Source of the DNA: Chitinophagales bacterium
Lineage (GTDB): Bacteria > Bacteroidota > Bacteroidia > Chitinophagales > LD1
NCBI GenBank assembly: GCA_044228435.1
Contig: JBGAUW010000006.1
Coordinates: forward strand, 4,203 to 68,202
Reading direction: 5' to 3'
DNA length: 64,000 bases
This document shows, piece after piece, positions 2,842 to 56,269 of this stretch. How positions within the stretch are numbered: position 1 is the first letter of the stretch; each line of letters starts with the position of its first letter. A program made the translations under genes and the position numbers. The notes under the pieces were generated by a model. That model made no database searches. It worked only from the letters and a program-made list of their open reading frames with translations, and had not been told where the DNA came from.

Positions 2842-2871
2842 TTGCTTATTTTATTGAATGCTTTTTATCAA

Positions 2872-3297: not shown

Positions 3298-3304
3298 CTA
3301 CCGG

Positions 3305-3862: not shown

Positions 3863-3916
3863 ACTTTATAATTGAAATTATTATTTAATGTTTTGTCTTG
3901 TGTTTAACGTTTTCTA

Positions 3917-4318: not shown

Positions 4319-4386
4319 TTTATTTCTTTTTAATTCTTTTTATTGTATTTGTCTTGTGTCTTCTGTCTAACGTCTCGGGTCTGTTC

Positions 4387-4656: not shown

Positions 4657-4681
4657 CTTATATTAGTATTGAGAGTTTGAA

Positions 4682-5248
4682 TTATTTATTGTCTTTTTTA
4701 AATGGCATACCCAGTGCTTCTAAAAGCGCGTAAGCTTCTTCGTCGCTTTGTGCGGTAGTTACAAAAGTAATATCCATACCTTGTATACGGGTTACCTTAT
4801 CAATTTCCATTTCGGGGAAAATGATTTGCTCCTTTATACCCATGGTATAGTTACCTCTGCCATCAAAACCTTTGTTGCTTATACCCTTAAAGTCGCGAAC
4901 GCGTGGAAGGGAAACCGAAACCAAACGGTCTAAGAACTCATACATTCTTTCGCTGCGTAGAGTTACGCGGCTGCCTATTGGCATACCTTCGCGAAGTTTG
5001 AAGTTAGAAATCGCCTTTTTGGCGTGTGATGCTACCGCCTTTTGGCCGGCAATTGCTGTCATTTCATTTACAGCAATATCAACCAGTTTCTTATCGGAGT
5101 TGGCTCCGTTAACACCCTGGTTTAAGCATATTTTAGTTAATCGGGGAACTTGCATTACCGAAGTGTAGTTAAACTTCGTCATTAAAGCAGAGGTAATCTC
5201 GTCCTTATAGCGCTTCGCTAAGCGCGGAGTGTATTTTGCTGTACTCAT
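4682..5248 (-). CDS. rplE: 50S ribosomal protein L5
   Basis: 188 aa, L5-like throughout ([20 protein letters not shown]). It is the first gene of the run in this window. Confidence 0.96.
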
Positions 5249-13184: not shown

Positions 13185-13223
13185 TTCTTGAACTGGAATA
13201 AGTATTTGTTTCAATAAAAAATT

Positions 13224-13253
13224 AAAACCTGCATCCATGGTGCGGGTTTTTTT
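13224..13253 (+). terminator. intrinsic terminator after the PorP/SprF gene
   Basis: ACCTGCA / TGCGGGT stem (one G-U pair) followed by T7. Confidence 0.5.
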
Positions 13254-13282
13254 GAATAATAGAAAACCAAAAATTAACCCCG

Positions 13283-31062: not shown

Positions 31063-34000
31063 TTATTTCATCAGGGTAACTGTTCCCGTAAAGTCTTTGC
31101 TTACATCGTCGAAATACGTAACCGTCATTTGATAAACATAAGTATCAAACGGAGCGGCCTTACCATTTACGGTACCATCCCATCCGCTATTTTTATTAAT
31201 ACCATTTACCTGCGTTGGGTTGTAGTAAATACGCTGACCCCAACGGTCGAATATGGCTACCGAAATATTTTCGGCACCCAGTATATCAAACTCAAAGCGG
31301 TCGTTTAAGCCATCGCCGTTAGGTGTAAATGCGGTAGGTAAAAATGCCGAAGGCTGGTTAAGCACCTGCACGGTAACAGTATCCGATGCGTAGCACGAAT
31401 CGGAGTTCATCACAGTAACCGTAAAAGTGGTAGTGGTGCGTGGTGCTACCAGTGGGTTAGAGCAATTTAGCAGGTCGCCACAACTGCTGAAATCAAAAAT
31501 AACACGGTTGTTGGAATCTGTTTCCGGTGTCCAGAAATAATTCACAATTGGCGTTGAATCGGATTGAGCGGTAGCTACTAATTGTGTTTGCATACCGGTA
31601 AGTATTACCTGCTCGGTAACGTTCAAATCAACCGAAATTGCACCCGGTGCCGAAACGCTAAAATTGGTGGTACCCTGACAGCCGTTTACGTCGGTTACCA
31701 GCAATAAGTAATCGCCGGGCAACAATGCGCTAAACGTATCTGTGTTTTGCGCCACTGCATTTAGCAAATAAGTATACGGACCAAAACCGCCGGTAACCAC
31801 GGTAGACACATTACCCGTGGCTGTATTAAAGCATTTAGCCCCGTTTGCAGTAGCAGTTACCACAATAGGTGCGGGGTTATTAATAACCACCGAATCTGTA
31901 GCCGTGCAGCTTAATGCATCGGTAACGGTAAGCGTATAAGTGCCTGCTACCAGGTTACCTATAGCAATAGTTGACTTTCCGTTGCTCCAGGCATAGGTAT
32001 AAGGCTGTGTTCCGCCATTGGTTAAGGCGCTTATTGAACCGGTGTTACCTCCGTAGCAAATAGGGTCTAAACTTGCCAGGTTAGGGCTTATTTTAGTACC
32101 CTGTCCCAACGTAAAGGCTGCCGTAAGCGAACAACTATTAGCATCGGTAACGGTTACTGCATAAGGGCCTGCTGCTACACCGGTTAAATCAGGCGAGGTG
32201 GCATTGTTGCTCCACACATAGTTGTAGGCGGTTACACCACCGGTAACAGTTATATCTATTACACCGGTAGCCGAGCCAAAGCATACAGCATCAGTAGTAG
32301 TGCCGGCAAGTACAAGTTTAGAAGGTTCCAATACATCTACGCTATCATAAATAAAGCAGCCGCTCGAGTCGGTAAGTTGTATTACATAATGTCCGGCGCT
32401 TACGCCCACTAAAGCCGAATCAGTAGCAAAGTTGCTCCACAGGTAAAAATAAGGGCGGGTTCCTTCGGTTGGAATAACTGCCAAAGTACCGGTAGCTGCT
32501 CCATTGCACAACACATCGGTCTTCACGATGCTTATACCTAAAGGCAGTGGTTCGCGCACCGTATAAAGCGATACCCCCTGGCAACCATTGGCATCGGTTA
32601 CAGTAAGGTAATAATCGCCGCCAGCCACGCTGAATATATCTTCGGTAGTTTGATTGGTAGACCACAGATAAGCGTATGGCAGTGTACCGGCATAGGCTGT
32701 AATATCTACAAAACCATCGGCAAGGCCGGCACAGGTTACATTTTTAACTACACCCGATGTAAATATCGCGTCCGGCTCTGTTATAGTAGTTGAATCAACA
32801 TAAGAGCAGTTTCTTGAATCGGTAATTGTAACAATATAGCTACCTGCAGGTACGTTAATCAGGTCTTCGGTAGTTCTTCCGTTGCTCCATAAATAGGTAA
32901 AAGGTGGCGTTCCGCCCGATGCAATTAAATCAACTCTTCCGCTGGTATCACCATAGCAAAGCGGATTTTTATTAATAAAGTTGGCAAAAATAGCCGAAGG
33001 GTTAACTATGGTAGTAGATGCGGTAGCCGTGCAGCTATTGGCATCGGTTACGGTAATTACATACTGCCCGCCCGGTAAATTGCTCAGGTCTTCGGTAGTG
33101 GCGTTATTGCTCCATAAATAAGTATAAGCAGGGGTTCCGCCGGCTACCACCAAATCAATAGCACCATCGTTAGCATTAAAGCAGGTTATATTGGTTACGT
33201 TAAGCGTTAGGGCAATAGCGTTCGGCTCAGCAAGCAAAACAGAATCCTTCTTTTCGCAGCCATTGGCATCGGTTATAATTACAAAATATAATCCGCCGCT
33301 TAAACCGCTAATATCTTCTGTTCCCTGGAAGGTAGACCAAAGGAAGGTGTAAGGAGCCACACCACCACTAACGGTTAAATCAGCAGCGCCATTTTTTGCA
33401 CCGTTGCAGGTAACATCCGTTCCCACAACTGATGATACTATTCCAGCCGGCTCTGTAAGCGTATACGATGCTGTAACCGAACATCCGGCAGCATCGGTAA
33501 CCGAAACCACATAAGTTCCTGCAATTACATTGCGAATATCTTCGGCGATGGTCGAATTGCTCCAGGCATAAGTATAAGGGAAGGTTCCGCCCTGTACCGA
33601 TATATCTACCGAGCCATCATTGCCACCGGCACAGCTTACATTTTGGGTAGATGAATTAATTACGATAGGGTTAGATTCTGTAACCACTGCCGAGGCACTT
33701 GCCGAGCAGGATGCTGCATCGGTAACTACCACGCTATAGGTGCCGGCAATCAAACCGGTTAAATCTTCGCTGGTAGCATTATTATTCCATAAGTAAGTAT
33801 AAGTTGGTGCACCGCCATTTACTGTAAGGTCTATAGCACCCGTTGCAGCACCGTTACAAATTACATTGGTTACAACAAGGTTTAATACCAACGCAGGGGC
33901 TTCGGTAATTACAACAGAATCGTTCCTGGTGCAACCATTAGCATCGGTAATTATTACAAAGTAAGTTCCTCCGCTTATGCCACTCAAATCTTCAACCGTT

Positions 34001-37000
34001 TGGAAGGTGTTCCATAGGTAAGTATAAGGAGCAGTTCCGCCAGCCGCGGTTAAATCTATTGAACCGTTGGCAGCGCCAAAGCAAGTAACGTTTGTACCGG
34101 TAAGAGTTGAAGTAATAGCTGTTGGTTCTGTTATAGTAAAAGACGCAGTAAGGCTACAACCATTAGCATCTGTTACACTTACAGTATAAGTGCCACCGCT
34201 TAATCCGTTTATATCTTCGGTAGTAGCGCTATTGCTCCAGGCATAGGTATAAGGGAATACACCGCCCTGCACGGTTACATCAACAGCACCATTGGCCCCA
34301 CCTGCGCAACTTACATTTACAGGCGTAGCATTAAGCACTAAACCTGCCGGTTGGCTAATAGTTGCACCGGCGGTTGCTGTACAGCTATTGCCATCGGTAA
34401 TAGTTACACTATAATTTCCAGCTGGTAGTAAGCTTAAGTCTTCGGTAACTGCACCGTTGCTCCATGCATAAGTAATAACCGGCGTTCCGCCGTTTACCGT
34501 AATATCAATGCTGGCAGTAGAGTCGCCATTGCACAGTACATCGGTTTTAACCAGGCTTACGGTTATAGGTGCTGGCTCGGTAACAGTTGTTGAGTTGGTA
34601 ATGCTGCAACCATTGGCATCGTAAACTATAACGGTGTATAAACCACCGGCCACACCGCTAAGGTCTTCCGATGTTGCGCCGTTACTCCATACATAATTAT
34701 AAGGCAGGGTTCCACCGGTTACTGTCAAATCAACAGCACCACTAGCAGCACCTGCGCATAATACCTGCGTAGATGTTACTGATGAACTAAGTTGAGTTGG
34801 CTCTGTAATAACTTGCGAAATTGTTTGCTGGCAACCATTTGCATCGGTTACTACTACAGTGTAGGTATTCGGTAGTAAACCAAACACATCTTCGGTAGTT
34901 GCACCATTGCTCCAGGCAAAGCTGTATGGCGGCACGCCCCCATTAGCAGTAACATCTATCGACCCTGTTGAATCATTATAACAACTAAGGTTTTGGAACG
35001 ATGCTATATTAAGGAACAATGGAAGCGGCTGCGAAATAGTAGCGCCAACTGAAGCGGTGCAGCCTTTGGCATCGGTAATGGCAACATTATAAGTGCCGGC
35101 AGCTAAACCTGTAATATCTTCGGTGGTAGCGCTGTTGCTCCATAAAAAATTATAAGGGGCATTACCGCCGCTTACAGTAATATAAATAGCGCCGGTTGTA
35201 GCTCCGCTACAGCCAATATTAGCTACCGAATCAATTTGTGCCTGCAATTGGTTAGGCTGCGTAACAGTTACGCTAACAAAATCAGTACAACCTTTCGAGT
35301 CGCGCAGGGTTACTACATAGTTACCCGAGGCTAAGCCGGTAAAGGTAGGCGATGGAACAAACTGAATACCATTAATAGAATAAGAATATGGAGGAAGGCC
35401 GCCGGTTAATTGAACCGTTACCGTTCCGTCTACTCCGCCAAAGCAGCTTACCGGTGTTTGCGAAACAAGGCTGGCATACACAGCATAAGCCGTATCAATT
35501 ACTTCAGTTCCGCCATCAGTACATCCGTTAGCATCAGTAATTAAAATTGTATAAGTACCATCAGATAACCCACTAAACACATTGCCCGGTTGCGAAGGGC
35601 CACCGTTTAATGAGTATGCATATGGCGTAGTACCACCGGTAGCATTGACAGTTATGCTTCCGTCAAACACATTATCGCAACTTGCGTTTTGAGTAACAGC
35701 GGTATGTACCAGCACAGCCGGTTCAGAAACCACTACCGCATTGCCGGCATAAGCGCTAACACAAGCAGAATCATCGGTAATAAACACATTATAGTTGCCG
35801 GCAGTAAGATTGCTGAAAGCACCTGAAGATTGATATACCACACCACCATCAATTGAATAATAAGCTGAACCGTTGGTTGCAGTGCCCGACACCAAAATGC
35901 TACCGGTATTGCCACCATTACAAAGCACGTTTGTATTTGTTACCTGTGTTACCTGCGGTTGCTGTAAAATAAGTATCTGGTTATCGTTGCTGGTAGATGA
36001 ACACACGCTGGAAAATACCTGGCGACGATAGTATACTGTTGAACTGGTAAAAGGAGGATCGTACGAAATCGCGTTTGCCCCACCAACAGCCGTCCAGGTA
36101 ATTCCGTTAGGGCTGGTTTCCCACTGGTAGGTATAAACACCAGTACCGCCTGTAGGCGTACTGCCATTAATAGTAACAGGGTCGCCCGAACCGCAGAAGC
36201 GTTGATAGTTTTCAATGGTGTTATTACCTATTACAGGCACCACAGTAATTGTTATAACATTGCTACCGCTGCTGCAGGCAGATGATGTAACATCGCGGCG
36301 GAAATAGGTAGTAACGGTTACGTTACCCGGGTCGTAGTTTTGATTAACTGCGCCACCTATTGGGGTAAAGGTAAAGTTATCCGTACTTTCAAGCCATTGG
36401 AAATTATAGGTTCCCGTACCGCCCGCTGGAGTAGAGCCTATCAATAAAGCAGGATCGCCGCTACCGCAAAAACTTTGAGCGGCCGATATAGAGTTACCCG
36501 AAATAGCGGGAACAATAGTTATAGTAACCGCGTTGCTGCTAAGCGAGCAGCTGCCGCTAAAGGCATTGCGCATAAAATAAGTAGTAGCTGTAATATTGCC
36601 CGGCGCATAGCTTTGGCCGGTAGCCCCGCCTATGTTTGCCCAGGTAAAACCATCGGGCGAGCTTTGCCATTGGTAGGTAAATGAACCGTTGCCACCGGTA
36701 GGAACCGCTCCCGTAAGTGTTCCGGGGTCGCCCGATACGCAGAAAGTTTGGCTGGTACCAATGGTGTTTACTGTAATTGGCGGAGTAATAGTAACTGTAA
36801 CCACATTGCTTACATCGCTGCATGGCAATGAGTTAACCGTGCGGCGGTATTGGGTAGTAACCGTTACAGCACCCGGCGAGTAATTTGCCGAAACCGCGCC
36901 ACCAATCACATTCCATCCACCACCATTTACATTTTGCTCCCATACATAGGTATAGCTTCCGGTGCCGCCACCGGGTGTTGTGCCAACCAAAGTAGCTGGT

Positions 37001-38814
37001 GTAAATGCGCCGCACGAGGCCTGATCGGCGCTTATGCTGTTGTTAGTTATAACAGGATAGATGGTAACCGTAACATTGGGGCTATTATTAAAACAAGTGC
37101 CCGAATAAACGCCCCGGCGATAAGTAGTTGTTTGCGTTATTAACGGTGGATTGAAAGTAGCCGAAGTGCTTGCTGCAGCAGCCCAGGTATTTCCACCATC
37201 CGTACTCTCCTGCCATTGATAGGTATAAATACCGTTACCGCCGCTCAAACTACCGGTACCGGTTAGTGTAATCGGGTCGCCGCTGCCACAAAAACTTTGC
37301 GGCGCACCAATAGTGTTGCCGGCAATTACCGGCTGAATGGTAACCGTAACCACATTACTTGTCGATGCCGCACAGGCTCCGCCTGTAATTAAACGCCTGA
37401 AATATGTGGTGCTTACCAAAGCTCCCGGCGAATAATTTTGCGAATTGGCTCCGCTAATATTTCCGTAAGGTCCGCCAATAGATGTGGCCGATTGCCATTG
37501 ATAGCCGTAGCTGCCGTTTCCACCGGTAGGTAGCGTGCCGGTTAAACCAATAGGTGTAGAGGTGCCACACAAAGTTTGATCGGCATCAATTACGTTATTA
37601 GCTATAGGCTGCTCTATTACGTAAGTAAGCACATTCGATGAATTATCGCAACCGCCAGTGCTTATTACTCTTCTAACAAGTAAGGTTTGCGAAGTAGCGG
37701 CAGGGTCGAACTGGTAAGGCAACAAGGTTGAAGAGTAAGGGCCGTTAACTGTCCAGGTAGCGCCACCATTCGTGCTGGTTTCCCACTGGTAAGTCCAGGT
37801 AGGGAAAGCTACTGTTGGTGTATTGCCGGTAACAACTCCCGGGTCGCCGGTGCTGCAAAATGGGCCAACAGCACCCGTTGGGGTAATAACGTTATTGGTT
37901 ACAGGGGCTGAAGAAACAAGTAAATCGATATCCTTAAAACATAGGCTTTTTATACCTCCGTTGGTACAAAATACACGGTACGTTGTATTGGCTAAAGGCG
38001 ATACCGTGATAGTAGCACCCGTGCCCACAGTAGTTCCACCGGCGGTTTCCCAAACATAGCTGCCGCCAAACACAGTTCCGCCGGTTACCGTAAGGGTTAT
38101 TGACCCCCCCGAACAGGTACTAGTACCCGGCGAGGCTGTAATACCCGATGGAATTGGCGACGACCAATCTACCGAAACACGAGCCCCATAGTTACTACCA
38201 CCACCCAGGCCCGGAGGGGCCGCACCGTGGTTGGTTGTAAATACATCGGTTGTTGTTGAGTTTTGGTTAGGTGGAGCAAAACGATAATTGAAGGTAGTAG
38301 TAAGTACATCATCATAACAGTAATCATCATCATCAAACAAACAGCTTTCGCAGCCGCTTGCAGCGCCGCAATCATCACCTGTATAAGAACCGCGTATTTG
38401 CAAATAGCGCGGTGTATTAACTGTAACGTTAGTTCCTGCCGTACCATATGTTTGGTCGAAAAGGTTAACCAGCGGGTGGCTGGCAGCCTGGTCGTCGCCG
38501 CCATCAAATATAGTGCGCCATCCAATCCAGTTGGTTCCCGAAAAATACATAAAGCCATTGGTTCGCCAGCTTTGGCCGTCAAGGTTGGCGTTATCGGCAG
38601 CATACCAAAAAAGCGCTACCTCATCCGATTCAAAAGGATCTTCGAATTCCTGCAACCAGGTATCGCGCACATAAGGCCTTATGCGCATACAACCATCATT
38701 AATTACCTGTGCGTTGGCTTCAGAAACAAATAAAATGAGCGCTAAAACCAGTAAAGGTAATGCTGAAAAGCGTGTAAACTTGTTCATATCTGTAGTGTCT
38801 TTTCTGTTTGTCAA
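31063..38814 (-). CDS. giant SprB-like cell-surface adhesin with a T9SS type-B (gliding-motility-associated) C-terminal sorting domain
   Basis: 2583 aa. Domain order: signal peptide (the start may be M10 at 38787); unknown N-terminal domain; eight repeats of about 91 aa of the YQW type; 19 SprB-type repeats (CxGxxxGxI...GGxxPYxYxWSN...TDANGC); one Ig-like domain; C-terminal PTAFTPNGDGLNDRFEF...YVYQMTVTY. Confidence 0.93.
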   Translation of the reverse strand: MTNRKDTTDMNKFTRFSALPLLVLALILFVSEANAQVINDGCMRIRPYVRDTWLQEFEDPFESDEVALFWYAADNANLDGQSWRTNGFMYFSGTNWIGWRTIFDGGDDQAASHPLVNLFDQTYGTAGTNVTVNTPRYLQIRGSYTGDDCGAASGCESCLFDDDDYCYDDVLTTTFNYRFAPPNQNSTTTDVFTTNHGAAPPGLGGGSNYGARVSVDWSSPIPSGITASPGTSTCSGGSITLTVTGGTVFGGSYVWETAGGTTVGTGATITVSPLANTTYRVFCTNGGIKSLCFKDIDLLVSSAPVTNNVITPTGAVGPFCSTGDPGVVTGNTPTVAFPTWTYQWETSTNGGATWTVNGPYSSTLLPYQFDPAATSQTLLVRRVISTGGCDNSSNVLTYVIEQPIANNVIDADQTLCGTSTPIGLTGTLPTGGNGSYGYQWQSATSIGGPYGNISGANSQNYSPGALVSTTYFRRLITGGACAASTSNVVTVTIQPVIAGNTIGAPQSFCGSGDPITLTGTGSLSGGNGIYTYQWQESTDGGNTWAAAASTSATFNPPLITQTTTYRRGVYSGTCFNNSPNVTVTIYPVITNNSISADQASCGAFTPATLVGTTPGGGTGSYTYVWEQNVNGGGWNVIGGAVSANYSPGAVTVTTQYRRTVNSLPCSDVSNVVTVTITPPITVNTIGTSQTFCVSGDPGTLTGAVPTGGNGSFTYQWQSSPDGFTWANIGGATGQSYAPGNITATTYFMRNAFSGSCSLSSNAVTITIVPAISGNSISAAQSFCGSGDPALLIGSTPAGGTGTYNFQWLESTDNFTFTPIGGAVNQNYDPGNVTVTTYFRRDVTSSACSSGSNVITITVVPVIGNNTIENYQRFCGSGDPVTINGSTPTGGTGVYTYQWETSPNGITWTAVGGANAISYDPPFTSSTVYYRRQVFSSVCSSTSNDNQILILQQPQVTQVTNTNVLCNGGNTGSILVSGTATNGSAYYSIDGGVVYQSSGAFSNLTAGNYNVFITDDSACVSAYAGNAVVVSEPAVLVHTAVTQNASCDNVFDGSITVNATGGTTPYAYSLNGGPSQPGNVFSGLSDGTYTILITDANGCTDGGTEVIDTAYAVYASLVSQTPVSCFGGVDGTVTVQLTGGLPPYSYSINGIQFVPSPTFTGLASGNYVVTLRDSKGCTDFVSVTVTQPNQLQAQIDSVANIGCSGATTGAIYITVSGGNAPYNFLWSNSATTEDITGLAAGTYNVAITDAKGCTASVGATISQPLPLFLNIASFQNLSCYNDSTGSIDVTANGGVPPYSFAWSNGATTEDVFGLLPNTYTVVVTDANGCQQTISQVITEPTQLSSSVTSTQVLCAGAASGAVDLTVTGGTLPYNYVWSNGATSEDLSGVAGGLYTVIVYDANGCSITNSTTVTEPAPITVSLVKTDVLCNGDSTASIDITVNGGTPVITYAWSNGAVTEDLSLLPAGNYSVTITDGNSCTATAGATISQPAGLVLNATPVNVSCAGGANGAVDVTVQGGVFPYTYAWSNSATTEDINGLSGGTYTVSVTDANGCSLTASFTITEPTAITSTLTGTNVTCFGAANGSIDLTAAGGTAPYTYLWNTFQTVEDLSGISGGTYFVIITDANGCTRNDSVVITEAPALVLNLVVTNVICNGAATGAIDLTVNGGAPTYTYLWNNNATSEDLTGLIAGTYSVVVTDAASCSASASAVVTESNPIVINSSTQNVSCAGGNDGSVDISVQGGTFPYTYAWSNSTIAEDIRNVIAGTYVVSVTDAAGCSVTASYTLTEPAGIVSSVVGTDVTCNGAKNGAADLTVSGGVAPYTFLWSTFQGTEDISGLSGGLYFVIITDANGCEKKDSVLLAEPNAIALTLNVTNITCFNANDGAIDLVVAGGTPAYTYLWSNNATTEDLSNLPGGQYVITVTDANSCTATASTTIVNPSAIFANFINKNPLCYGDTSGRVDLIASGGTPPFTYLWSNGRTTEDLINVPAGSYIVTITDSRNCSYVDSTTITEPDAIFTSGVVKNVTCAGLADGFVDITAYAGTLPYAYLWSTNQTTEDIFSVAGGDYYLTVTDANGCQGVSLYTVREPLPLGISIVKTDVLCNGAATGTLAVIPTEGTRPYFYLWSNFATDSALVGVSAGHYVIQLTDSSGCFIYDSVDVLEPSKLVLAGTTTDAVCFGSATGVIDITVTGGVTAYNYVWSNNATSPDLTGVAAGPYAVTVTDANSCSLTAAFTLGQGTKISPNLASLDPICYGGNTGSISALTNGGTQPYTYAWSNGKSTIAIGNLVAGTYTLTVTDALSCTATDSVVINNPAPIVVTATANGAKCFNTATGNVSTVVTGGFGPYTYLLNAVAQNTDTFSALLPGDYLLLVTDVNGCQGTTNFSVSAPGAISVDLNVTEQVILTGMQTQLVATAQSDSTPIVNYFWTPETDSNNRVIFDFSSCGDLLNCSNPLVAPRTTTTFTVTVMNSDSCYASDTVTVQVLNQPSAFLPTAFTPNGDGLNDRFEFDILGAENISVAIFDRWGQRIYYNPTQVNGINKNSGWDGTVNGKAAPFDTYVYQMTVTYFDDVSKDFTGTVTLMK
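31630..35928 (-). repeat. array of 19 SprB-type repeats within the adhesin (aa 963-2395)
   Basis: Counted by hand. Repeats 5-18 are each exactly 75 aa (225 nt). Confidence 0.85.
35962..38160 (-). repeat. array of eight repeats of about 91 aa (FCGSGDP...GGxGxYTYQWxxS...TTYFRR...C) within the adhesin (aa 219-951)
   Basis: Repeat boundaries fall at P403, P495, P587, P678, P769 and P860. The first two units are divergent. Confidence 0.8.
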
Positions 38815-38824
38815 TTCAACTTAA

Positions 38825-39655
38825 CTATTTACCCGGGTGATTTTTAACCACATCGGCCGGCGGATTTTTAGTCCACTCAAATTTTTGCTTTACATCGGCG
38901 CGGAATTTTTCAGCGCTGAACCATTCCGGAAAGCTGTATTGGTTTCCATATAATGTAGCAAAAGTTTGTGGCTCGAAAACAAATAACCAGGCTCTTATGC
39001 TAAGCTGATAGCTTAATTCGCCCTTGCTGGTGTTCGAGTAAGCTTCGCGCACAGGTTTTGTTTCGTGCAGCGGTGCTGATAAAAAAGCCGGAATTTGAAC
39101 CGGTTTAAAGTAACCGGTATAGTAAGGGTTAAGCGCCGTTAATTCACTGGCGTTAAACAGTTTTTCATATTCCAGGGGGTAAAGCTTTATCCACGCATCA
39201 AGCGCAATCTCGTAGGCTTTAGTATCTTCTGCAGCTTTGCCTGTAAGCACCGGTTTTGGAAAATGAGCCGCCAGCTCGTTAAGGCGGGCTTCGCTTATTT
39301 TGCTATTGGTAACCCACTCCCAAATACTACTTGCAAATACCTCGGGCTTACTGCCATCGCTTAACCCAAGGTAATATGCCGAGGGGTTAGACTTTTGTAT
39401 GCCATCCAACTTCCAAAAGGCTTGCTCTTCATTAGCAAAGTTTTTCTGCCAGGCTTTAATTGCCTGCGCAAAAGCGGCATCATCGGTATACTTTTCAATA
39501 ACCGGAAAGTGCGGACAGGTTTTATAAATGTTATCGAAACTTACCTGGCTGGCTTGCATTAGCGAGCGCCATTGTTGAACAGAAGTTGGTTGCTGTGCAT
39601 TAGCAGACAAACTGCCCAACACCAATGCAAAAAGCAATGCGCGTACGTAATTCAT
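38825..39655 (-). CDS. secreted protein of unknown function, co-transcribed with the adhesin
   Basis: Signal peptide MNYVRALLFALVLGSLSANAQ. It ends 10 nt before the adhesin ORF. Aromatic-rich, with no family I recognise. Confidence 0.75.
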   Translation of the reverse strand: MNYVRALLFALVLGSLSANAQQPTSVQQWRSLMQASQVSFDNIYKTCPHFPVIEKYTDDAAFAQAIKAWQKNFANEEQAFWKLDGIQKSNPSAYYLGLSDGSKPEVFASSIWEWVTNSKISEARLNELAAHFPKPVLTGKAAEDTKAYEIALDAWIKLYPLEYEKLFNASELTALNPYYTGYFKPVQIPAFLSAPLHETKPVREAYSNTSKGELSYQLSIRAWLFVFEPQTFATLYGNQYSFPEWFSAEKFRADVKQKFEWTKNPPADVVKNHPGK

Positions 39656-40306: not shown

Positions 40307-40405
40307 GGCTATATTAAAACTGACGACAAATTTGGCATTTCCTTACCAATAGTAAAATCGAGGTTACTGAACAGCTAATTTTGCCTTACAACAAAACAAT
40401 CAGTT

Positions 40406-40798
40406 ATGAAAAGATTACTTCTACCTGTTATTTGCGCACTGCTACTTACCGCCTCCTGCAAAAAGGATAAAGAAACCTTTAATGCGGAAGCTACTTACAA
40501 CACAACAGCTTTTACCGAAAAAGGTTGCTTTGATCCGGGAACCGTAATGTCAATGAATTCGCTAAACGCAATCGAAATTACCTTTACTAATAACACCAAA
40601 AACAACCTGAGTTTTTTTTGGATAGATTATAGCGCCGATGAAAAATTCTATAAAGAACTTGAACCCGGTCAATCGTGGGTGTGCCCTACCTTTTTAACTC
40701 ACCCGTGGATGATACGCAAGGCCGACAATAGCTGTGCTACTATTCTAATCCCTAAGGCAGGTGCAGCAGCCAATGAGACGGTGACGTTTGAGGAGTAA
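40406..40798 (+). CDS. lipoprotein with a pVHL beta-domain-like fold signature
   Basis: Lipobox LTASC (Cys18). Residues 60-106 align without gaps to human pVHL 76-122, including the W88/Y98/S111/H115/W117 equivalents. Confidence 0.8.
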   Translation: MKRLLLPVICALLLTASCKKDKETFNAEATYNTTAFTEKGCFDPGTVMSMNSLNAIEITFTNNTKNNLSFFWIDYSADEKFYKELEPGQSWVCPTFLTHPWMIRKADNSCATILIPKAGAAANETVTFEE

Positions 40799-40810
40799 GC
40801 CCCCTAAACA

Positions 40811-40845
40811 AAGACATCCGAAGTTTTAAAAACTTCGGATGTCTT
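40811..40845. terminator. strong hairpin terminator (15-bp perfect stem)
   Basis: AAGACATCCGAAGTT / AACTTCGGATGTCTT around a 5-nt loop, between convergent genes. Confidence 0.75.
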
Positions 40846-40850
40846 CAATA

Positions 40851-40883
40851 AAAAAGCGCGAAGAAAATTCTTCGCGCTTTTTT
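40851..40883. terminator. second bidirectional terminator
   Basis: AAAAAGCGCGAAGAA / TTCTTCGCGCTTTTT. Confidence 0.75.
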
Positions 40884-40908
40884 GCCTTTAGAGATTTAGG
40901 ATAGGGTT

Positions 40909-48652: not shown

Positions 48653-49870
48653 ATGAACAATAAAAAAGTAGTGCTTGCTTTTAGCGGCGGATTAGATACC
48701 ACTTACTGCGCACTTTACCTTAAAAACGATTTAGGTTACGAGGTGCATGCTATTACCATTAACACCGGTGGCTTTTCGGAAGAAGAAATAGCACGCATAG
48801 AGGCGCACGCATTTGCGCTGGGTGTAAAATCGTTTAAGTGTGTAGATGCACGAAACGACTATTACAACGATGTAATTAAATACCTGGTGTTTGGCAACGT
48901 TTTAAAGAACAACACATACCCCCTATCGGTTAGTGCCGAGCGTATTGTGCAGGCTATTGCTACTGCAAAGTTCGCCAAGCAACTGGGAGCCGAAGCAGTA
49001 GCGCACGGCAGCACCGGTGCCGGTAACGACCAGGTGCGATTTGATATGGTGTTTCACATAATGGCGCCCGAACTACAAATTATTACGCCTATACGCGATT
49101 TAAAGCTTTCGCGCGAGCAGGAAATTGAATACCTGAAGAAGAACAACGTGCAAATGAATTTTGAGAAAGCTGTTTACAGCATCAACAAAGGCATTTGGGG
49201 TACATCGGTTGGGGGACGCGAAACTTTAACCTCGGGCGGTTCGCTACCCGAAACAGCTTACCCTACGCAACTAAGCAATAATGAAAGCAGCGCAGTAACC
49301 CTGCATTTTGAACAGGGCGAATTGAAGGGAGTAAATGATGAGTTGTTTGAAAACCCCGTTGATGCCATACTTAAATTACAGGAATTAGCTTCGCCTTTTG
49401 CCATTGGCCGCGATATACACGTGGGCGATACTATTATAGGCATTAAAGGCCGAGTTGGTTTTGAAGCCGCTGCGCCGCTTATTACCATTAAGGCACATCA
49501 CCTGTTAGAAAAACACACCCTTACCAAATGGCAGTTGTTTATTAAGGACCAAATGGCCACCTGGTATGGCAACTGGCTGCACGAGGGGCAATACTTCGAC
49601 CCTGTAATGCGCGACATTGAAGCCTTCTTTACTTCTACTCAAAAATACGTTACCGGTAAGGTGTTTGTAAAACTACTACCCTACCGTTTCGAGTTAACCG
49701 GCATTGAATCGGCGCACGATTTAATGAGTGCAAAATTTGGCAGCTATGGCGAAATGAACAAAGGCTGGAGCGGCGATGATGTAAAAGGCTTTACAAAAAT
49801 TTTCGGCAATCAAACCGGTATTTACTTCCAGGTAAACCAGCTCAACCAACAGTTCCATGAACAGGATTAA
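48653..49870 (+). CDS. argG: argininosuccinate synthase
   Basis: AFSGGLDT ATP-binding motif, 405 aa. Confidence 0.96.
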   Translation: MNNKKVVLAFSGGLDTTYCALYLKNDLGYEVHAITINTGGFSEEEIARIEAHAFALGVKSFKCVDARNDYYNDVIKYLVFGNVLKNNTYPLSVSAERIVQAIATAKFAKQLGAEAVAHGSTGAGNDQVRFDMVFHIMAPELQIITPIRDLKLSREQEIEYLKKNNVQMNFEKAVYSINKGIWGTSVGGRETLTSGGSLPETAYPTQLSNNESSAVTLHFEQGELKGVNDELFENPVDAILKLQELASPFAIGRDIHVGDTIIGIKGRVGFEAAAPLITIKAHHLLEKHTLTKWQLFIKDQMATWYGNWLHEGQYFDPVMRDIEAFFTSTQKYVTGKVFVKLLPYRFELTGIESAHDLMSAKFGSYGEMNKGWSGDDVKGFTKIFGNQTGIYFQVNQLNQQFHEQD

Positions 49871-50840
49871 AGCGGGTATTATTGGTGGTGCCGGCTACAC
49901 CGGTGGCGAACTGCTAAGGCTTTTATTACTACACCCTTTGGTGGAAGTAGCATTTGTGCAAAGCAATAGCAATGCAGATAAACCAGTGCATACCGTACAT
50001 ACTGATTTATTGGGCGAAACTGATTTGCTTTTTTCACAGACGCATACTAAGGGCATTGATGTGCTATTTTTGTGCGGCGGGCACGATGCTGCCCGAAAAT
50101 TTATGGCAGAAAATCAATTACCTGAAAACGTAGTGGTAATTGACTTAAGCCAGGATTTTAGGCACCACGCCAACAGCAATTTTGCAGGCCGTAGCTTTGT
50201 ATATGGTTTACCCGAGCTAAACCGCGATTTGATTAAAAGCGCAAAAAGCATTGCCAACCCCGGTTGCTTTGCTACCTGTATAGAACTGGCCCTATTGCCT
50301 TTGGCTGCTGCACAACAAATAAACAGCGAAGTGCACATAAACGCCGTAACCGGTAGCACCGGTGCCGGGCAGGCATTAAGCAGCACCACTCACTTTAGTT
50401 GGCGCAACAATAACGCATCTACCTATAAAGTGTTTGAGCACCAGCATTTGTTAGAGATAAACGAAAGCCTAAAAAGCTTACAACCCGGTCTAGATAGCGA
50501 TATGCTGTTTGTGCCTCAGCGCGGCAATTTTACGCGTGGTATTATGGCATCGGTATATCTTAAAACAGATTTAGCCGAAGCAGACTTAAAGGGTATATAT
50601 ACCCAATACTATCAAGCGCACCCTTTTGTAACCGTAAGCAATAGTGAGATTGATTTAAAACAGGTAGTAAACACCAATCGTTGCTTTATACACCTGGAAA
50701 AAAAAGAAGGATACGTACTGCTTACATCCGTAATAGACAACCTGCTAAAAGGAGCATCGGGGCAGGCGGTGCAAAACATGAACTTAATTTTTGGCTTCGA
50801 CGAAAAAGCGGGCCTTCACTTAAAACCAAGTGCATTTTAA
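49857..50840 (+). CDS. argC: N-acyl-gamma-glutamyl-phosphate reductase
   Basis: GGAGYTGGELLRLL and active-site NPGCFAT. It overlaps argG by 14 nt. Confidence 0.95.
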   Translation: MNRIKAGIIGGAGYTGGELLRLLLLHPLVEVAFVQSNSNADKPVHTVHTDLLGETDLLFSQTHTKGIDVLFLCGGHDAARKFMAENQLPENVVVIDLSQDFRHHANSNFAGRSFVYGLPELNRDLIKSAKSIANPGCFATCIELALLPLAAAQQINSEVHINAVTGSTGAGQALSSTTHFSWRNNNASTYKVFEHQHLLEINESLKSLQPGLDSDMLFVPQRGNFTRGIMASVYLKTDLAEADLKGIYTQYYQAHPFVTVSNSEIDLKQVVNTNRCFIHLEKKEGYVLLTSVIDNLLKGASGQAVQNMNLIFGFDEKAGLHLKPSAF

Positions 50841-50841
50841 A

Positions 50842-51981
50842 ATGAATCTGTTTGATGTTTATCCGCTTTTTGATGTAGTGCCCGTAAAGGGTGAGGGATG
50901 TTACTTATACGATGATAAAGGCACGCGCTACATGGATTTGTATGGCGGCCACGCTGTAATTTCTATTGGCCACAGCCATCCGCATTACGTAAAACTGCTA
51001 ACAGAGCAATTGCAGCAATTAGGCTTTTACTCTAACTCAGTAAAAATTCCTGCGCAGCAACAGTTGGCTGATAAACTAGGGGCTCTTTCAAGCTACAACG
51101 ATTACGCCCTCTTTCTTTGTAACAGTGGCGCCGAGGCGAATGAAAATGCGCTTAAGCTGGCTTCGTTTAAAAACGGCCGCAAAAAAATTATTGCCTTCCA
51201 TAAGTCTTTCCACGGCCGCACCTCGCTGGCAGTTGCCGCCACCGATGATAAAAGCCTGAGCGCACAAATTAATGCAAACGAAGAGATTCAATTTCTTCCC
51301 TTTAACGATGAGGCTGCATTAATCGAAGCTTTTGATGATACTGTTTGTGCCGTAATTATAGAAGGTATGCAAGGCGTGGGCGGTGTAAACATTCCTACTT
51401 TAAGCTTTTTGCAATTGCTGCGTACTCTCTGCGATAAGTTTGGCGCTTCACTCATCCTCGATGAAATACAATCGGGCTACGGACGCAGCGGTTACTTTTT
51501 CGCACACCAATACGCAGGCATAAAGGCAGACCTTATTACTGTTGCAAAAGGCATGGGTAACGGCTTTCCGGTAGCCGGTGTATTAATTAGCCCGGCATAC
51601 AAAGCAAAGCATGGCTTGTTGGGCACCACATTTGGGGGTAACTATCTGGCATGCGCCGCATCTATTGCTGTGCTGGACGTAATAAAACAGGAAGACTTAA
51701 TAGCTAATGCCCAAACTACCGGTGCATACTTTATGGAGCAGTTAAAAAGCTTCGAAGCAGTAAGCGAAGTGCGTGGCATGGGCTTAATGATTGGCATCGA
51801 ACTACACGAACCATGTGCCGCTGTACGAAATAGCCTTTTGCACAACCATAAAATTTTCACCGGTTCATCTTCCAATAAAAATACCCTGCGCATACTTCCG
51901 CCACTTACCATAGGCAAGCAAGAGGTGGATATTTTTCTCGAAGCTTTTCATCACTCTTTAAAAGCCCAGCCCGTAGCATGA
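50842..51981 (+). CDS. argD: acetyl/succinyl-ornithine aminotransferase (class III PLP enzyme)
   Basis: LILDEIQSGYGRSG and the lysine context TVAKGMGNGFP. The start is at MNLFDVYP. Confidence 0.93.
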   Translation: MNLFDVYPLFDVVPVKGEGCYLYDDKGTRYMDLYGGHAVISIGHSHPHYVKLLTEQLQQLGFYSNSVKIPAQQQLADKLGALSSYNDYALFLCNSGAEANENALKLASFKNGRKKIIAFHKSFHGRTSLAVAATDDKSLSAQINANEEIQFLPFNDEAALIEAFDDTVCAVIIEGMQGVGGVNIPTLSFLQLLRTLCDKFGASLILDEIQSGYGRSGYFFAHQYAGIKADLITVAKGMGNGFPVAGVLISPAYKAKHGLLGTTFGGNYLACAASIAVLDVIKQEDLIANAQTTGAYFMEQLKSFEAVSEVRGMGLMIGIELHEPCAAVRNSLLHNHKIFTGSSSNKNTLRILPPLTIGKQEVDIFLEAFHHSLKAQPVA

Positions 51982-52925
51982 AACAATTTATTTCGGTAAA
52001 CGATGCCGGCAATTTTGAATCGTTAATAAACGAAGCACTCGAACTAAAGCGCGATGTAAATGCCTTTGCCGATTTAGGAAAACGCAAAACCATTGGTCTG
52101 CTGTTTTTAAACCCAAGTCTGCGAACGCGTATGAGTACGCAGCGGGCTGCTTACAACCTGGGCATGAACGTAATGGTGCTTAACCTGGATAAGGATAGCT
52201 GGCAAATTGAATTTGAAGATGGCGCTGTAATGAACAGCACTAAAGTGGAACATATACGCGAAGCAGCTGGTGTAATTGCCCAATACTGCGATGTGGTAGG
52301 TATTCGGTGCTTTCCGGGCCTTACCGACCGCGATAAAGATTATAACGAAGATGTGCTGAATAGCTTTATGCGCTATTGCAACAAACCGCTTATCAGCCTT
52401 GAATCGGCTACGCGGCATCCGCTACAAAGCTTTGCAGATATGATAACCATTGCCGAAACCAAACAAACCGCTAAACCAAAAGTAGTGCTAACCTGGGCTC
52501 CGCACATTAAAGCGTTGCCGCAGGCCGTACCAAACTCGTTTGCCGAGTGGGCTGTAGCATCGGGAGCCGAAGTTGTAATAGCACAACCACAGGGCTATGA
52601 GTTGGACACCCAATTCAGCCGCGGTGCAACCATTGAATACAACCAGGATAAAGCCCTGCAGGGTGCCGACTATGTGTATGTAAAAAACTGGTCATCGTAT
52701 AATGATTACGGGGCTATGCCACCGGTTAGTGAATCGTGGCTGTTAACTGCCGAAAAAATGAACTTAACCAACAATGCCAAAGTAATGCACTGCCTGCCTG
52801 TTAGGCGCAATGTAGAATTACCCGATGCTATTATAGACGGGCCCAACAGCCTTATACAGCAACAAGCCGGTAACCGGGTAATAGCTGCACAAACAGTTTT
52901 GAAAAAAATATTGCAAACCAAATAA
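51978..52925 (+). CDS. argF: N-acetyl- or N-succinyl-ornithine carbamoyltransferase (argF' type, not a classical OTC)
   Basis: SLRTR carbamoyl-phosphate motif, HPLQSFAD and HCLPVRRN. At 315 aa its sequence tracks the AOTCase/SOTCase subfamily rather than classical OTC. ATGA overlap with argD. Confidence 0.88.
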   Translation: MKQFISVNDAGNFESLINEALELKRDVNAFADLGKRKTIGLLFLNPSLRTRMSTQRAAYNLGMNVMVLNLDKDSWQIEFEDGAVMNSTKVEHIREAAGVIAQYCDVVGIRCFPGLTDRDKDYNEDVLNSFMRYCNKPLISLESATRHPLQSFADMITIAETKQTAKPKVVLTWAPHIKALPQAVPNSFAEWAVASGAEVVIAQPQGYELDTQFSRGATIEYNQDKALQGADYVYVKNWSSYNDYGAMPPVSESWLLTAEKMNLTNNAKVMHCLPVRRNVELPDAIIDGPNSLIQQQAGNRVIAAQTVLKKILQTK

Positions 52926-52930
52926 TAGCC

Positions 52931-53725
52931 ATGCACGCACTACTGGTAGTAAAAATAGGGGGCAACATTATAGATAATGCCGAAGCATTAAACAGCTTTT
53001 TGCAGGATTTTGCTGCGCTGCCGGGTAAAAAAATATTAGTGCACGGTGGTGGCAAGCTGGCTACCGAACTTAGTGGCAAATTAGGCATAGCAACTACTAT
53101 GGTAGCAGGGCGCCGCATAACGGATGAAGCAACCATTAAGGTTGTAACCATGACCTATGCCGGCTGGATTAATAAAAGCATAGTAGGGGCTTTAAATGCC
53201 AAAGGCGCCAATGCTATTGGCCTTACCTGCGCCGATGCCCGAATTTTACAGGCAGTTAAACGCCCGGTTAAAGATGTTGATTACGGTTTGGTAGGCGATA
53301 TTTGTAAAAAGGATGTAAACTGTAAAGTTTTAAAAAACCTTTTAGAGGCGGGTATTACACCGGTAATGGCACCTATTAGTTGCAATGCCGAAGGCCAGTT
53401 ATTAAACATAAATGCCGACACAGTGGCGCGTATACTGGCCGAAGCCCTGAGTGAATTTTACGAGGTTAATCTTATTTATTGCTTTGAAAAGAACGGTCTG
53501 CTTAGCAATGTAAATGATGAACAAAGTATAATTAACGAAATAGACTTAGCCCGGGCTGAAGAATTAAAGCGCACCGGCGTTATAACTGAGGGCATGCTGC
53601 CTAAAATAGATAACGCTTTTGGTGCGATTAGTAATGGAGTTAAAACAGTATTAATAGGGCACGCCTCTCATATTACTCAACTGGCCGAAGGCGAAGCGCG
53701 CACCGGCACAACTATAAGGGCATGA
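52931..53725 (+). CDS. argB: acetylglutamate kinase
   Basis: VVKIGGN...VHGGG amino-acid-kinase motifs. Confidence 0.94.
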   Translation: MHALLVVKIGGNIIDNAEALNSFLQDFAALPGKKILVHGGGKLATELSGKLGIATTMVAGRRITDEATIKVVTMTYAGWINKSIVGALNAKGANAIGLTCADARILQAVKRPVKDVDYGLVGDICKKDVNCKVLKNLLEAGITPVMAPISCNAEGQLLNINADTVARILAEALSEFYEVNLIYCFEKNGLLSNVNDEQSIINEIDLARAEELKRTGVITEGMLPKIDNAFGAISNGVKTVLIGHASHITQLAEGEARTGTTIRA

Positions 53726-54774
53726 CGGAAACAATTGCCCTTTTACAGCGCTTAATAGAAACCCCCTCTTTAAGTAAAGAGGAGGATAAAACTGCCGATA
53801 TACTTTTCAGTTTTTTAGAAGGAAAGAAGTGCATTGCCTTTCGCGAGGGCAATAATGTTTGGGCGCAGAATACATTTTTTGATACGGCGAAACCCACCCT
53901 GCTGTTAAACTCGCATCACGATACGGTAAAGCCCAACTCCGGATATACAAAAGACCCTTTTGCTGCTACAATTGAAGAAGGTAAACTATATGGACTTGGC
54001 AGTAATGATGCAGGGGGACCTTTAGTATCCCTGCTGGCTACCTTTCTGTATTTTAAAGATAAAAGCGATATGCCTTCCAATATCGTTTTTGCCGCTACAG
54101 CCGAAGAAGAAATATCGGGCAAGGGAGGGATTGAAAGCATACTAAACGAATTAGGCAACATAGAACTTGCCATAGTAGGCGAACCTACAAAAATGGAAAT
54201 GGCCATTGCCGAAAGAGGTCTGTTGGTAGTGGATTGTACGGCCAAAGGAAAAGCAGGGCATGCCGCGCGCAATGAGGGCATTAATGCCATCTACGAAGCC
54301 CTGCCCGATATAGAATGGTTCCGCGCCTATAAATTTGAAAAGAGTTCGCAGTGGCTGGGACCGGTTAGTATGAATGTTACGGTGGTAAGCGCCGGAACGG
54401 CGCACAATCAGGTACCGGCCGCATGCAGCTTTGTAGCCGATATACGGTTGAATGAATGTTATACCCATGAACAGGTATTAGCCACTATACGCCAACATGT
54501 AAAAGCCGACGTAAAGGAACGCTCTACGCGTATTAAGCCTTCATTTATTGATACCGAACACCCCATGGTTAAAGCGGCGCAACAATTAAACATTCCGCTG
54601 TATGGTTCGCCCACTACTTCCGATATGGCTCTAATGCCCTGGAAGGCTGTAAAAATTGGCCCCGGCGATTCGGCCCGTTCGCATAGTGCCGATGAGTTTA
54701 TTTATATAGAAGAGATTAAAAATGGTATTGCGCTATACAAGCAGCTTATCGAAACATATTTAGAAGCTGTTTAG
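53722..54774 (+). CDS. argE: M20-family deacylase (acetylornithine deacetylase-like)
   Basis: LNSHHDTV and ATAEEE metal-ligand motifs. ATGA overlap with argB. Confidence 0.88.
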   Translation: MTETIALLQRLIETPSLSKEEDKTADILFSFLEGKKCIAFREGNNVWAQNTFFDTAKPTLLLNSHHDTVKPNSGYTKDPFAATIEEGKLYGLGSNDAGGPLVSLLATFLYFKDKSDMPSNIVFAATAEEEISGKGGIESILNELGNIELAIVGEPTKMEMAIAERGLLVVDCTAKGKAGHAARNEGINAIYEALPDIEWFRAYKFEKSSQWLGPVSMNVTVVSAGTAHNQVPAACSFVADIRLNECYTHEQVLATIRQHVKADVKERSTRIKPSFIDTEHPMVKAAQQLNIPLYGSPTTSDMALMPWKAVKIGPGDSARSHSADEFIYIEEIKNGIALYKQLIETYLEAV

Positions 54775-54952
54775 GATTTATATAGTAAGGTTGTTTATGA
54801 GCTATTTTCGAGCGAACCAAGAAAGGTTTTCGCAGCCATAATGGAATATTTCTGGCAAGAAAATCTGCCGCAGGTGCAGCCGAAAAGAGCCATAAACAAA
54901 TTAGGAGATAAATTCTAGACAGCTTCATAAACAACTAAAAAAAACACGTAGC

Positions 54953-56269
54953 ATGAAACTTTGGCAAAAAGGCGAATTAAAACAAGATGATAAGGCACTG
55001 GTTACCGAAAAGTTTACGGTAGGCAACGACCGCATATGGGATTTGCGCCTCGCCAGGTTCGATGTTTTAGGTTCATTAGCTCATGCCCAAATGCTGCACG
55101 AGATAAAGATTATTGATGCAGATGAATTGAATGCTATAAAAACCGGCTTGCAGGATATTCTAACTACGATAGATGAAGGCAATTTCATTTTAGAAGAGCA
55201 TGTAGAAGATGTACACTCACAAATAGAACAAACGCTTACAGCCACCATTGGCGATGCCGGCAAAAAACTGCACACCGGCCGCTCGCGTAACGACCAGGTG
55301 CTGGTAGATATTAAGTTGTATCTTAAACACACGCTTGAAGAAACTTCAGGGTTGGTTATGCAGCTATTTACCAAGCTACAGCAGTTAAGCGAGCAATACA
55401 AAAATGATTTACTACCGGGCTATACGCATTTGCAATTAGCCATGCCTTCATCATTCGGGCTTTGGTTTGGCGCCTACGCCGAAAGCCTTGCCGACGATAT
55501 GGAACTGCTTTCAGCAGCTTATAAAATAGCCGATAAAAACCCGCTGGGCTCCGGTGCCGGTTATGGTTCAGCTTTCCCCCTTAACCGCACATTAACCACC
55601 GGGCTGCTTGGCTTTAGCCAAATGAATTACAACTCGGTTTATGCGCAAATGACTCGCGGTAAAGCAGAGAAAGCAACCCTCACCTCTTTTGCATCGGTTG
55701 CTTCTACCCTATCGCGCTTTGCGTATGATGTTTGCCTGTATATGAACCAGCAGTTTGGCTATATCTCCTTCTCCGACTCGCTTACTACCGGTTCCAGCAT
55801 AATGCCGCACAAAAAGAACCCCGATATATTTGAGTTAATCCGCGCCAAATGTAACCGCCTGCAGGCTACACCAAACGAAATGACGATGCTTTGCAATAAT
55901 CTTCCTTCGGGCTACCACCGCGATATGCAGCTAACTAAAGATATCCTGTTTCCGGCCATTGATACAATGCACGAGTGCCTTACCATGCTTATCTTTTCGT
56001 TAGATGAAATAAAAGTGCGCAAGGACATTTTAAATGATGCAAAGTTTAACGACCTGTTTAGTGTAGAAGAAATTAATAAACTGGTTGTGGGCGGCATGGC
56101 CTTTCGCGATGCCTATAAAGTGGTGGGCAATTCAATTAATGCGGGCACCTTTAACCCCGAACGAAAACTGGCCCATACGCACGAAGGTAGCATTAACCGG
56201 TTGTGCAATGAAGAAATTGCGGCTATGATGAACAACGCTGCTGCCGTGTTTGAATCGAAAAAACAATAG
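54953..56269 (+). CDS. argH: argininosuccinate lyase
   Basis: GSSIMPHKKNPD fumarate-lyase signature. Confidence 0.96.
   Translation: MKLWQKGELKQDDKALVTEKFTVGNDRIWDLRLARFDVLGSLAHAQMLHEIKIIDADELNAIKTGLQDILTTIDEGNFILEEHVEDVHSQIEQTLTATIGDAGKKLHTGRSRNDQVLVDIKLYLKHTLEETSGLVMQLFTKLQQLSEQYKNDLLPGYTHLQLAMPSSFGLWFGAYAESLADDMELLSAAYKIADKNPLGSGAGYGSAFPLNRTLTTGLLGFSQMNYNSVYAQMTRGKAEKATLTSFASVASTLSRFAYDVCLYMNQQFGYISFSDSLTTGSSIMPHKKNPDIFELIRAKCNRLQATPNEMTMLCNNLPSGYHRDMQLTKDILFPAIDTMHECLTMLIFSLDEIKVRKDILNDAKFNDLFSVEEINKLVVGGMAFRDAYKVVGNSINAGTFNPERKLAHTHEGSINRLCNEEIAAMMNNAAAVFESKKQ

Follow-up and report, generated by a model that had tools for sequence, protein, structure and literature searches.

A lipid-anchored VHL beta-type domain in a Chitinophagales bacterium with a conserved candidate pocket for proline-type residues

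The gene described here lies in a stretch of 64,000 nucleotides (the window) from contig JBGAUW010000006.1 of a Chitinophagales bacterium (GenBank assembly GCA_044228435.1), and its product resembles the beta domain of the human von Hippel-Lindau protein (pVHL). In the oxygen sensing of animals pVHL is the textbook reader of hydroxyproline, and it serves as the handle for most proteolysis-targeting chimera (PROTAC) drugs. The open reading frame (ORF) runs from ATG to TAA on the forward strand (40406..40798) and encodes a lipoprotein of 130 residues with one VHL beta-type domain. The promoter-like motif TAATTTTG (40376..40383, forward strand), found by regular expression 22 nt 5' of the ATG, matches TAnnTTTG, the Bacteroidota-type -7 promoter consensus; it is a weak indication, and a good -33 element was absent at the correct spacing. 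Two hairpins with perfect 16-bp stems follow the gene at 40811..40845 and 40849..40884, the second lying between an A-run and a T-run. Both were missed by a consensus terminator scan and were found by RNA folding, the fold of 40799-40900 giving -46.9 kcal/mol for the two jointly (z = -9.3; none of 200 shuffles was as good). The upstream gene, a GNAT acetyltransferase, is divergent and the downstream aconitase gene is convergent. Since both flanking genes are on the opposite strand, the gene is monocistronic, in accordance with the preliminary description, which had also noticed the two strong terminators. The second hairpin can serve both this gene and the convergent aconitase gene.

The relation of the product to the human pVHL beta domain (residues 63-154; PDB 1LM8, 1LQB, 4AJY) was analysed by profile, sequence and structure comparison. 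The domain core, residues 47-108 (40544..40729, forward strand; delimited with PF01847 and with phmmer against pVHL in the PDB), matched the Pfam family PF01847 with E=3.1e-11 and 43.6 bits against a gathering score of 21, covering profile positions 1-62 of 82. The only other Pfam match was a sub-threshold one to Cupin_1 (13.7 bits, cut-off 22). The core pairs without gaps with residues 63-124 of pVHL, an alignment that HMMER yielded independently, and 14 of the 62 positions are identical: S49 (S65 in pVHL), N51 (N67), S52 (S68), F60 (F76), N62 (N78), W72 (W88), Y82 (Y98), L85 (L101), P87 (P103), G88 (G104), H99 (H115), W101 (W117), R104 (R120) and A106 (A122). Conservative changes were seen in T95 for S111 and F96 for Y112. 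The alignment had first been drawn by eye, and its gapless course and residue numbering were all correct, S49, N51 and S52 being identities that had not been listed. The single sequence searched against the PDB gave an E value of about 0.11 only, yet every top match was pVHL. A profile built from 95 bacterial domain sequences alone retrieved pVHL chains only (E=5e-13), and hhalign against pVHL 54-213 gave a probability of 98.2% over 78 columns, so that the supposed VHL beta domain is recognised significantly by profile.

The structure of the protein was modelled with AlphaFold2. A first run with 5 sequences reached a mean predicted local distance difference test (pLDDT) score of 69.8; the rerun with the 95-sequence alignment, which was used here, reached 87.8, with values above 96 over most of the domain. 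The model placed a beta-sandwich at residues 28-130 (40487..40795, forward strand), with nine strands, two of them short and belonging to an N-terminal extension and seven forming the core, and with no helix in the mature protein. When the model was searched against the PDB with Foldseek, all of the 50 top hits were pVHL (probability 1.00, E about 2e-7, root-mean-square deviation 2.1-3.4 Å over 86-93 columns), thereby agreeing with the VHL beta fold that had been proposed from the letters alone. Together the profile matches and the predicted fold indicate that the protein is a bona fide stand-alone VHL beta domain whose homology to pVHL goes beyond chance. The absence of an alpha domain, claimed earlier, also stands: the protein ends 22 residues past the Pfam match, the Pfam and hhalign matches are confined to the beta domain and the model holds beta strands only. 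Two candidate identities were rejected, namely a pVHL orthologue acting as ubiquitin ligase (E3) receptor, the alpha domain with its BC-box being missing, and a GldH-type gliding lipoprotein, VHL being the sole above-threshold Pfam match.

The positions that form the hydroxyproline pocket of pVHL were located in the gene, all on the forward strand. The pocket walls W88 and Y98 correspond to W72 (40619..40621) and Y82 (40649..40651), the hydroxyl donor or acceptor S111 to T95 (40688..40690), and H115-L116-W117 to H99-P100-W101 (40700..40708). W72, Y82, H99 and W101 are identical to their pVHL counterparts and T95 is a Ser-to-Thr change, exactly as first noticed. From the gapless alignment and the global superposition we infer that the five residues would converge on one cavity. 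Conservation was counted in the 346 copies of the domain that the 150 best cluster representatives contain, and the counts are inflated because the hits were chosen by a profile of the query's own subfamily. The five pocket positions rank among the most conserved columns: W was found in 328 of 345 copies at W72 (95%), T in 295 and S in 28 of 336 at T95 (96%), H in 303 of 334 at H99 (91%), W in 313 of 334 at W101 (94%), and Y in 256 and F in 20 of 346 at Y82 (80%). The complete WYTHW pentad was present in 209 of 333 copies, and the pocket residues are conserved family-wide. Among the other columns, N62 (pVHL N78) was kept in 340 of 343 copies, S49 (S65) in 243 of 262, F60 (F76) in 274 of 339 and F or Y at F96 (Y112) in 293 of 336, and the family has G in 307 of 346 copies where the query has A77 (pVHL G93).

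The query and its four closest orthologues also share all five pocket residues without change, although the gene evolves fast. Between the window and the related locus L001 the identity is 61% for the VHL protein, 75% for the GNAT protein, 86% for a secreted 276-residue protein, 88% for an SprB-type protein and 93% for both the aconitase and a PIF1 helicase. The pVHL residues R69, R107, I109 and H110, which we take to contact the HIF backbone, are replaced by L53, W91, C93 and P94 in the query and are variable across the family. This pattern fits a shared pocket used with different peptide partners. In pVHL, Y98 contacts hydroxyproline directly, and modelling of the Y98H change left the fold unchanged (PMC3688787); fold stability alone would thus hardly account for the conservation of Y82. 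Judged from the alignments, the conservation of the residues lining the pocket points to a conserved ligand site.

The export signal and the location of the protein were analysed from its N-terminus. The signal peptide with the lipobox L-T-A-S before the cysteine occupies 40406..40459 (forward strand), and the N-terminus MKRLLLPVICALLLTAS followed by cysteine satisfies the PROSITE-type lipobox rule, so that the lipidated residue would be Cys18 (codon 40457-40459). The same lipobox with Cys at position 18 was found in six of six orthologues checked (50-96% identity), in support of the exported lipoprotein that had been described, and residues 1-21 are disordered or of low confidence in the AlphaFold2 model. 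In Bacteroidota, surface-exposed lipoproteins carry an acidic export signal right after the lipidated cysteine. The residues after Cys18 are KKDKE in the query and KKVTD, KKIID, KKVVD or KKDIK in the orthologues, with no acidic run; being unlike that signal, they make a location facing the periplasm at least as likely as one on the surface. Of the two locations first offered, periplasmic or surface-anchored, the latter is therefore not indicated by these residues. Two further cysteines, C41 (40526..40528) and C110 (40733..40735), both on the forward strand, are proposed as disulfide partners on the basis of their co-variation: both are present in 94 family domains, both absent in 141, and 27 have a single one. 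The pair occurs in 54% of the proteins with a signal-like N-terminus vs 20% of those without, which fits a C41-C110 disulfide formed outside the cytoplasm. The remaining C93 is not conserved in the family.

The extent of the family was determined by an exhaustive profile search over 1.84 billion cluster representatives, which gave at least 3,156 representatives at E<=1e-3 and 499 at E<=1e-10; PF01847 recognises 149 of the 150 best. The species genomes of GTDB were searched with the degenerate DNA pattern W-x-D-[YF]-(19 aa)-T-[FY]-x-x-H-P-W, which matched at least 120 loci, and 118 of 120 encode a protein matching the family profile. The groups in which these loci lie include Cyanobacteria, Alphaproteobacteria (especially Hyphomicrobiales), Betaproteobacteria, Actinomycetota (Micromonospora, Nocardia), Bacteroidota, Verrucomicrobiota, Planctomycetota, Acidobacteriota, Gemmatimonadota and Myxococcota. 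Close relatives of the query numbered only four by word-index search, one 96% identical and three about 60% identical. The architectures are chiefly small, with one or two domains, and a crude hydropathy test assigned a signal-like N-terminus to about half of the proteins. Rare, scattered fusions involve caspase, TIR, SAM, PAN, RicinB, MVL, PA14, OmpA, MACPF and cadherin domains as well as sorting tags of type IX secretion or of PEP-CTERM; no fusion to a 2-oxoglutarate (2OG) oxygenase was seen among the architectures scanned.

Several other members of the family were recorded. Giant proteins of 1,700-2,100 residues (P0005-P0009, P0013, P0025, P0026; L033:6482-8000, L096:5749-8000, L020:4155-8000, L029:1-945) carry an N-terminal array of up to 9-12 VHL-beta domains followed by a large unannotated region; they have no obvious signal peptide and occur in Flavobacteriaceae, Saprospiraceae, Cyanobacteria and Alphaproteobacteria. 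P0020, a Paulinella chromatophora transcript of 783 residues with three VHL-beta copies, is a protist member, and a TIR_2 match (E=2.9e-21) belongs to some one protein of the scanned set that includes it. At L125:865-6187 a VHL-beta gene stands among several genes for PEP-CTERM (exosortase-sorted) proteins, and P0168 combines PEP-CTERM and VHL domains in one protein. P0002, a 131-residue VHL-beta lipoprotein orthologue, is named '5'-3' exonuclease' by the Joint Genome Institute, which looks like a misannotation. Some sources already label family members 'VHL beta domain'. The query is a further member of this Pfam-listed and functionally uncharacterised bacterial family. The earlier statement that such a module is functionally unexplored in bacteria holds in so far as the literature search found no functional study of bacterial VHL-beta domains; the family itself is not new, being already present in PF01847 and in two publications (PMC7736814, PMC9002001).

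The contextual evidence on the ligand comes solely from distant relatives. Six metagenome loci (L124, L126-L130), four of them additional loci from a metagenome scan with the membrane protein, share a cluster of genes for a proline-rich protein, a two-domain VHL-beta protein, a membrane protein and a cyclophilin (L124:5452-8554; L126:1863-5237). The VHL gene lies 5' of the membrane-protein gene in all five loci with upstream DNA and the cyclophilin gene lies 3' in all six; in the two loci with called genes, L124 and L126, the VHL, membrane-protein and cyclophilin genes overlap at their stop and start codons. Immediately 5', and divergent in L124, is the gene of a secreted Cys-/Pro-rich protein with C-P-x-P-P-P-P repeats and 27-68% proline, found in four of four loci having DNA upstream beyond the VHL gene. 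The cyclophilin-type prolyl isomerase has a signal peptide and C-terminal membrane helices. The two-domain VHL-beta proteins of the cluster, among them P0155 and P0156, belong to the same domain family as the query and are likewise exported, and their first domain carries the WYTHW pentad; unlike the query they have two domains and no lipobox. The membrane protein is polytopic, of about 360 residues, with the conserved histidine motifs NWPHF, SPFHY, FFHG and IHHFFVDGVIWKL, and gave no match in Pfam, NCBIfam and PDB sequence searches; that it might be a membrane hydroxylase is a guess from the conserved histidines. This proline-centred cluster brings together a VHL-type reader, a prolyl isomerase and, as candidate substrate, a proline-rich protein, and this favours a prolyl or hydroxyprolyl peptide as the ligand.

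On these observations the reading that we favour, with confidence that is evenly balanced, is that the protein is a non-catalytic, disulfide-braced and lipid-anchored module which would bind a proline-type peptide residue through the conserved pocket. That the ligand is specifically hydroxyproline is a more tentative proposition and is put forward with doubt. The protein would be exported by Sec and then lipidated on Cys18, as its sequence motif suggests, to give a mature lipoprotein of about 112 residues with a single VHL-beta-type beta-sandwich. It would most likely be anchored in the membrane facing the periplasm, and the co-varying Cys41 and Cys110 may brace the fold. One face would present the pocket of W72, Y82, T95, H99 and W101, the equivalents of the pVHL residues to which the ring of 4-hydroxyproline and its hydroxyl group bind. 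Because catalytic and elongin-binding alpha domains are absent, the protein is most likely a pure binding module, which would dock on a short peptide centred on 4-hydroxyproline, or on proline in a particular context. Candidates for the partner are a cell-envelope protein, a peptide taken up by the cell and the giant SprB-type adhesin system encoded nearby.

Several results weigh against the binding of a proline-type residue, besides the inflated conservation counts given above. Pfam scans of the 47 ORFs of the window matched no 2OG-oxygenase or prolyl hydroxylase family. A PHD2-type query likewise remained unmatched at E<=10 in the 4,881 ORFs of the window and 120 loci, a search with the PHD2 catalytic domain that collagen-type hydroxylases might escape, these being covered for the window by the Pfam scans. 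The earlier remark that the window holds no prolyl hydroxylase gene is confirmed by both. An all-against-all BLAST comparison of the 471 neighbour ORFs of 118 family loci revealed no gene family in more than four loci, and the proline-centred cluster was absent from the window and the 120 genome loci. The literature search found binding data for no bacterial member, and the function of bacterial VHL-beta domains is stated to be unknown (PMC7736814). The residues F76 and W117 of pVHL belong to a structural 'aromatic tetrahedron' core (PMC3688787); F60 and W101 are their equivalents, so that the conservation is in part structural. The window scans also gave no hydroxyproline catabolism gene and no SusC/D pair. 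The suggestion that the protein captures Hyp-rich proteins of a host, plant or alga found no support in the context, as no polysaccharide- or peptide-utilisation locus is nearby.

A different ligand would be expected if the domain were a lectin-like or carbohydrate-binding-module-like beta-sandwich whose pocket of aromatic, His and Thr residues binds a sugar or other small hydroxylated ring of a glycan or cell-wall polymer. Sugar sites are typically pockets of aromatic and polar residues, the arrays with up to 9-12 tandem copies are reminiscent of multivalent lectins, and some members fuse the VHL-beta domain with RicinB, MVL mannan-binding, PA14, GLEYA, WSC, Laminin_G_3 or PAN domains. However, such fusions are rare, with one or two proteins each out of 150, and pVHL uses the same pocket residues to hold hydroxyproline. 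No recurrent gene cluster other than the proline-centred one was found, and no glycoside hydrolase or SusC/D gene is adjacent to the gene in the window. A sugar ligand is judged unlikely.

The gene neighbourhood of the query subfamily raises the further alternative that the protein is an accessory of an SprB-type gliding or type IX secretion adhesin system and would target this adhesin or the protein that partners it. In four of four loci (the window, L001, L057 and L131) the VHL gene is divergent from a gene for an SprB-repeat/CHU_C-type protein of about 2,580 residues, with zero to two intervening genes, and the gene of the P0014 orthologue comes after a type IX secretion cargo gene. In the window the SprB-type gene and the gene of the 276-residue secreted protein lie at 31063-39655 (reverse strand). 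The VHL protein of L001 is 61% identical to the query, that of L057 52%, with only the 276-residue gene between VHL and SprB-type genes, and that of L131 55%, with the SprB-type gene directly adjacent at 88 nt. The 276-residue protein itself (38825-39655), which has no Pfam match, precedes the SprB-type gene in the window, L001 and L057 at 73-86% identity. The aconitase gene is also retained on the other side in three of the four loci, so the adjacency may be plain synteny among Chitinophagales-type genomes; moreover, the VHL and SprB-type genes are transcribed from different strands, the genes between them differ from locus to locus and there is no evidence of co-regulation. This alternative bears on the partner and not on the chemistry of binding; it is compatible with binding of a proline-type residue and is considered distinctly unlikely. 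Between the VHL and aconitase genes, L001 has an extra gene of 292 residues with a faint Cofac_haem_bdg match (L001:8498-9376), absent in the window, and in L131 this position is occupied by a BNR/sortilin-like gene of 1,032 residues and a gene of 243 residues.

A passive periplasmic protein of structural or inhibitor type, in which the conserved residues merely hold the fold and no specific ligand pocket exists, is improbable. It would account for the conservation of F60 and W101, the counterparts of the core residues F76 and W117 (PMC3688787), and a few relatives bear the inhibitor-type domains LprI and Inhibitor_I36. Against this, Y82 is the counterpart of Y98, a residue of the surface pocket of pVHL (PMC3688787). 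W72, T95 and H99 likewise match the surface pocket residues W88, S111 and H115. Across phyla and very different architectures these four positions equal the core in conservation, and they stay invariant in a gene that diverges faster than the adjoining aconitase gene. Finally, a chance alignment by eye of a short segment, which the identity of just 23% over 62 residues and the single-sequence E value could suggest, is refuted by the Pfam, bacterial-profile and hhalign matches and by a predicted fold that retrieves pVHL only, and its probability is negligible.

The remaining window is ordinary chromosome. The Pfam scans identified part of a ribosomal-protein/SecY operon (198-5248), a PorP/SprF and OmpA-family pair of type IX secretion (12105-15613), an arginine-biosynthesis operon (48653-56269; argG, argC, an aminotransferase, an ornithine transcarbamylase-like gene, argB, an M20 deacetylase and argH) and an M1 peptidase carrying a type IX secretion C-terminal sorting domain (58060-60435), along with enolase, CarA and peptidases.

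The protein was compared with known systems. The beta-sandwich is the same as in pVHL, gapless over 62 residues, and the query differs from cytosolic pVHL in being exported and lipid-anchored, in having the C41/C110 pair and two extra N-terminal strands, and in occurring with no HIF or PHD partner. It has neither alpha domain nor BC-box and so cannot become part of an elongin/cullin ubiquitin ligase. Human VHLL (VHL-like protein), a paralogue with the beta domain only, keeps the N-terminal segment common to pVHL and has no alpha domain (PMC7465906), and therefore cannot nucleate the ligase either; it is, however, a cytosolic protein that arose by recent duplication in mammals and has no independent relation to the bacterial family. 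Among bacteria, EMK97_00595 of Litorilituus sediminis was noted in silico as a secreted VHL-beta protein (PMC9002001), and type X retrons encode an IHF-TM-VHL protein (PMC7736814), whose VHL domain, unlike the query, is on the cytoplasmic side. Other bacterial VHL-beta proteins share the PF01847 family and many are small and secreted with a C-terminal VHL-beta domain, whereas the query is a lipoprotein of minimal, single-domain form and is restricted to Bacteroidota of the Chitinophagales type. The gene in the window has none of the partners of the proline-centred cluster.

The origin of the domain is also affected by these results. VHL is said to have arisen de novo in Eumetazoa (PMC7465906), and the match of the bacterial profile to pVHL (E=5e-13) together with the size of the bacterial family contradicts that view. 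The high conservation of the pocket residues in the bacterial family also bears on it. A wider reading, put forward as a whole and only tentatively, is that bacterial VHL-beta domains are ancient and widespread readers of (hydroxy)proline peptides outside the ubiquitin system. The query would be a minimal periplasmic form, docking on an envelope protein through a (hydroxy)prolyl motif, and this protein might be part of the SprB-type adhesin system next to it; pVHL would have been recruited from this module and would not be a de novo invention of animals. Hydroxyproline reading is a reasonable hypothesis and a cheaply testable one, as fluorescent VHL ligands and Hyp peptides are commercial. If these domains read hydroxyproline or proline, they would form a large unexplored set of bacterial readers for a barely studied modification, and, being small and disulfide-stabilised, they might serve as stable Hyp-binding reagents; if their ligand is different, the family would show the re-use of an old pocket.

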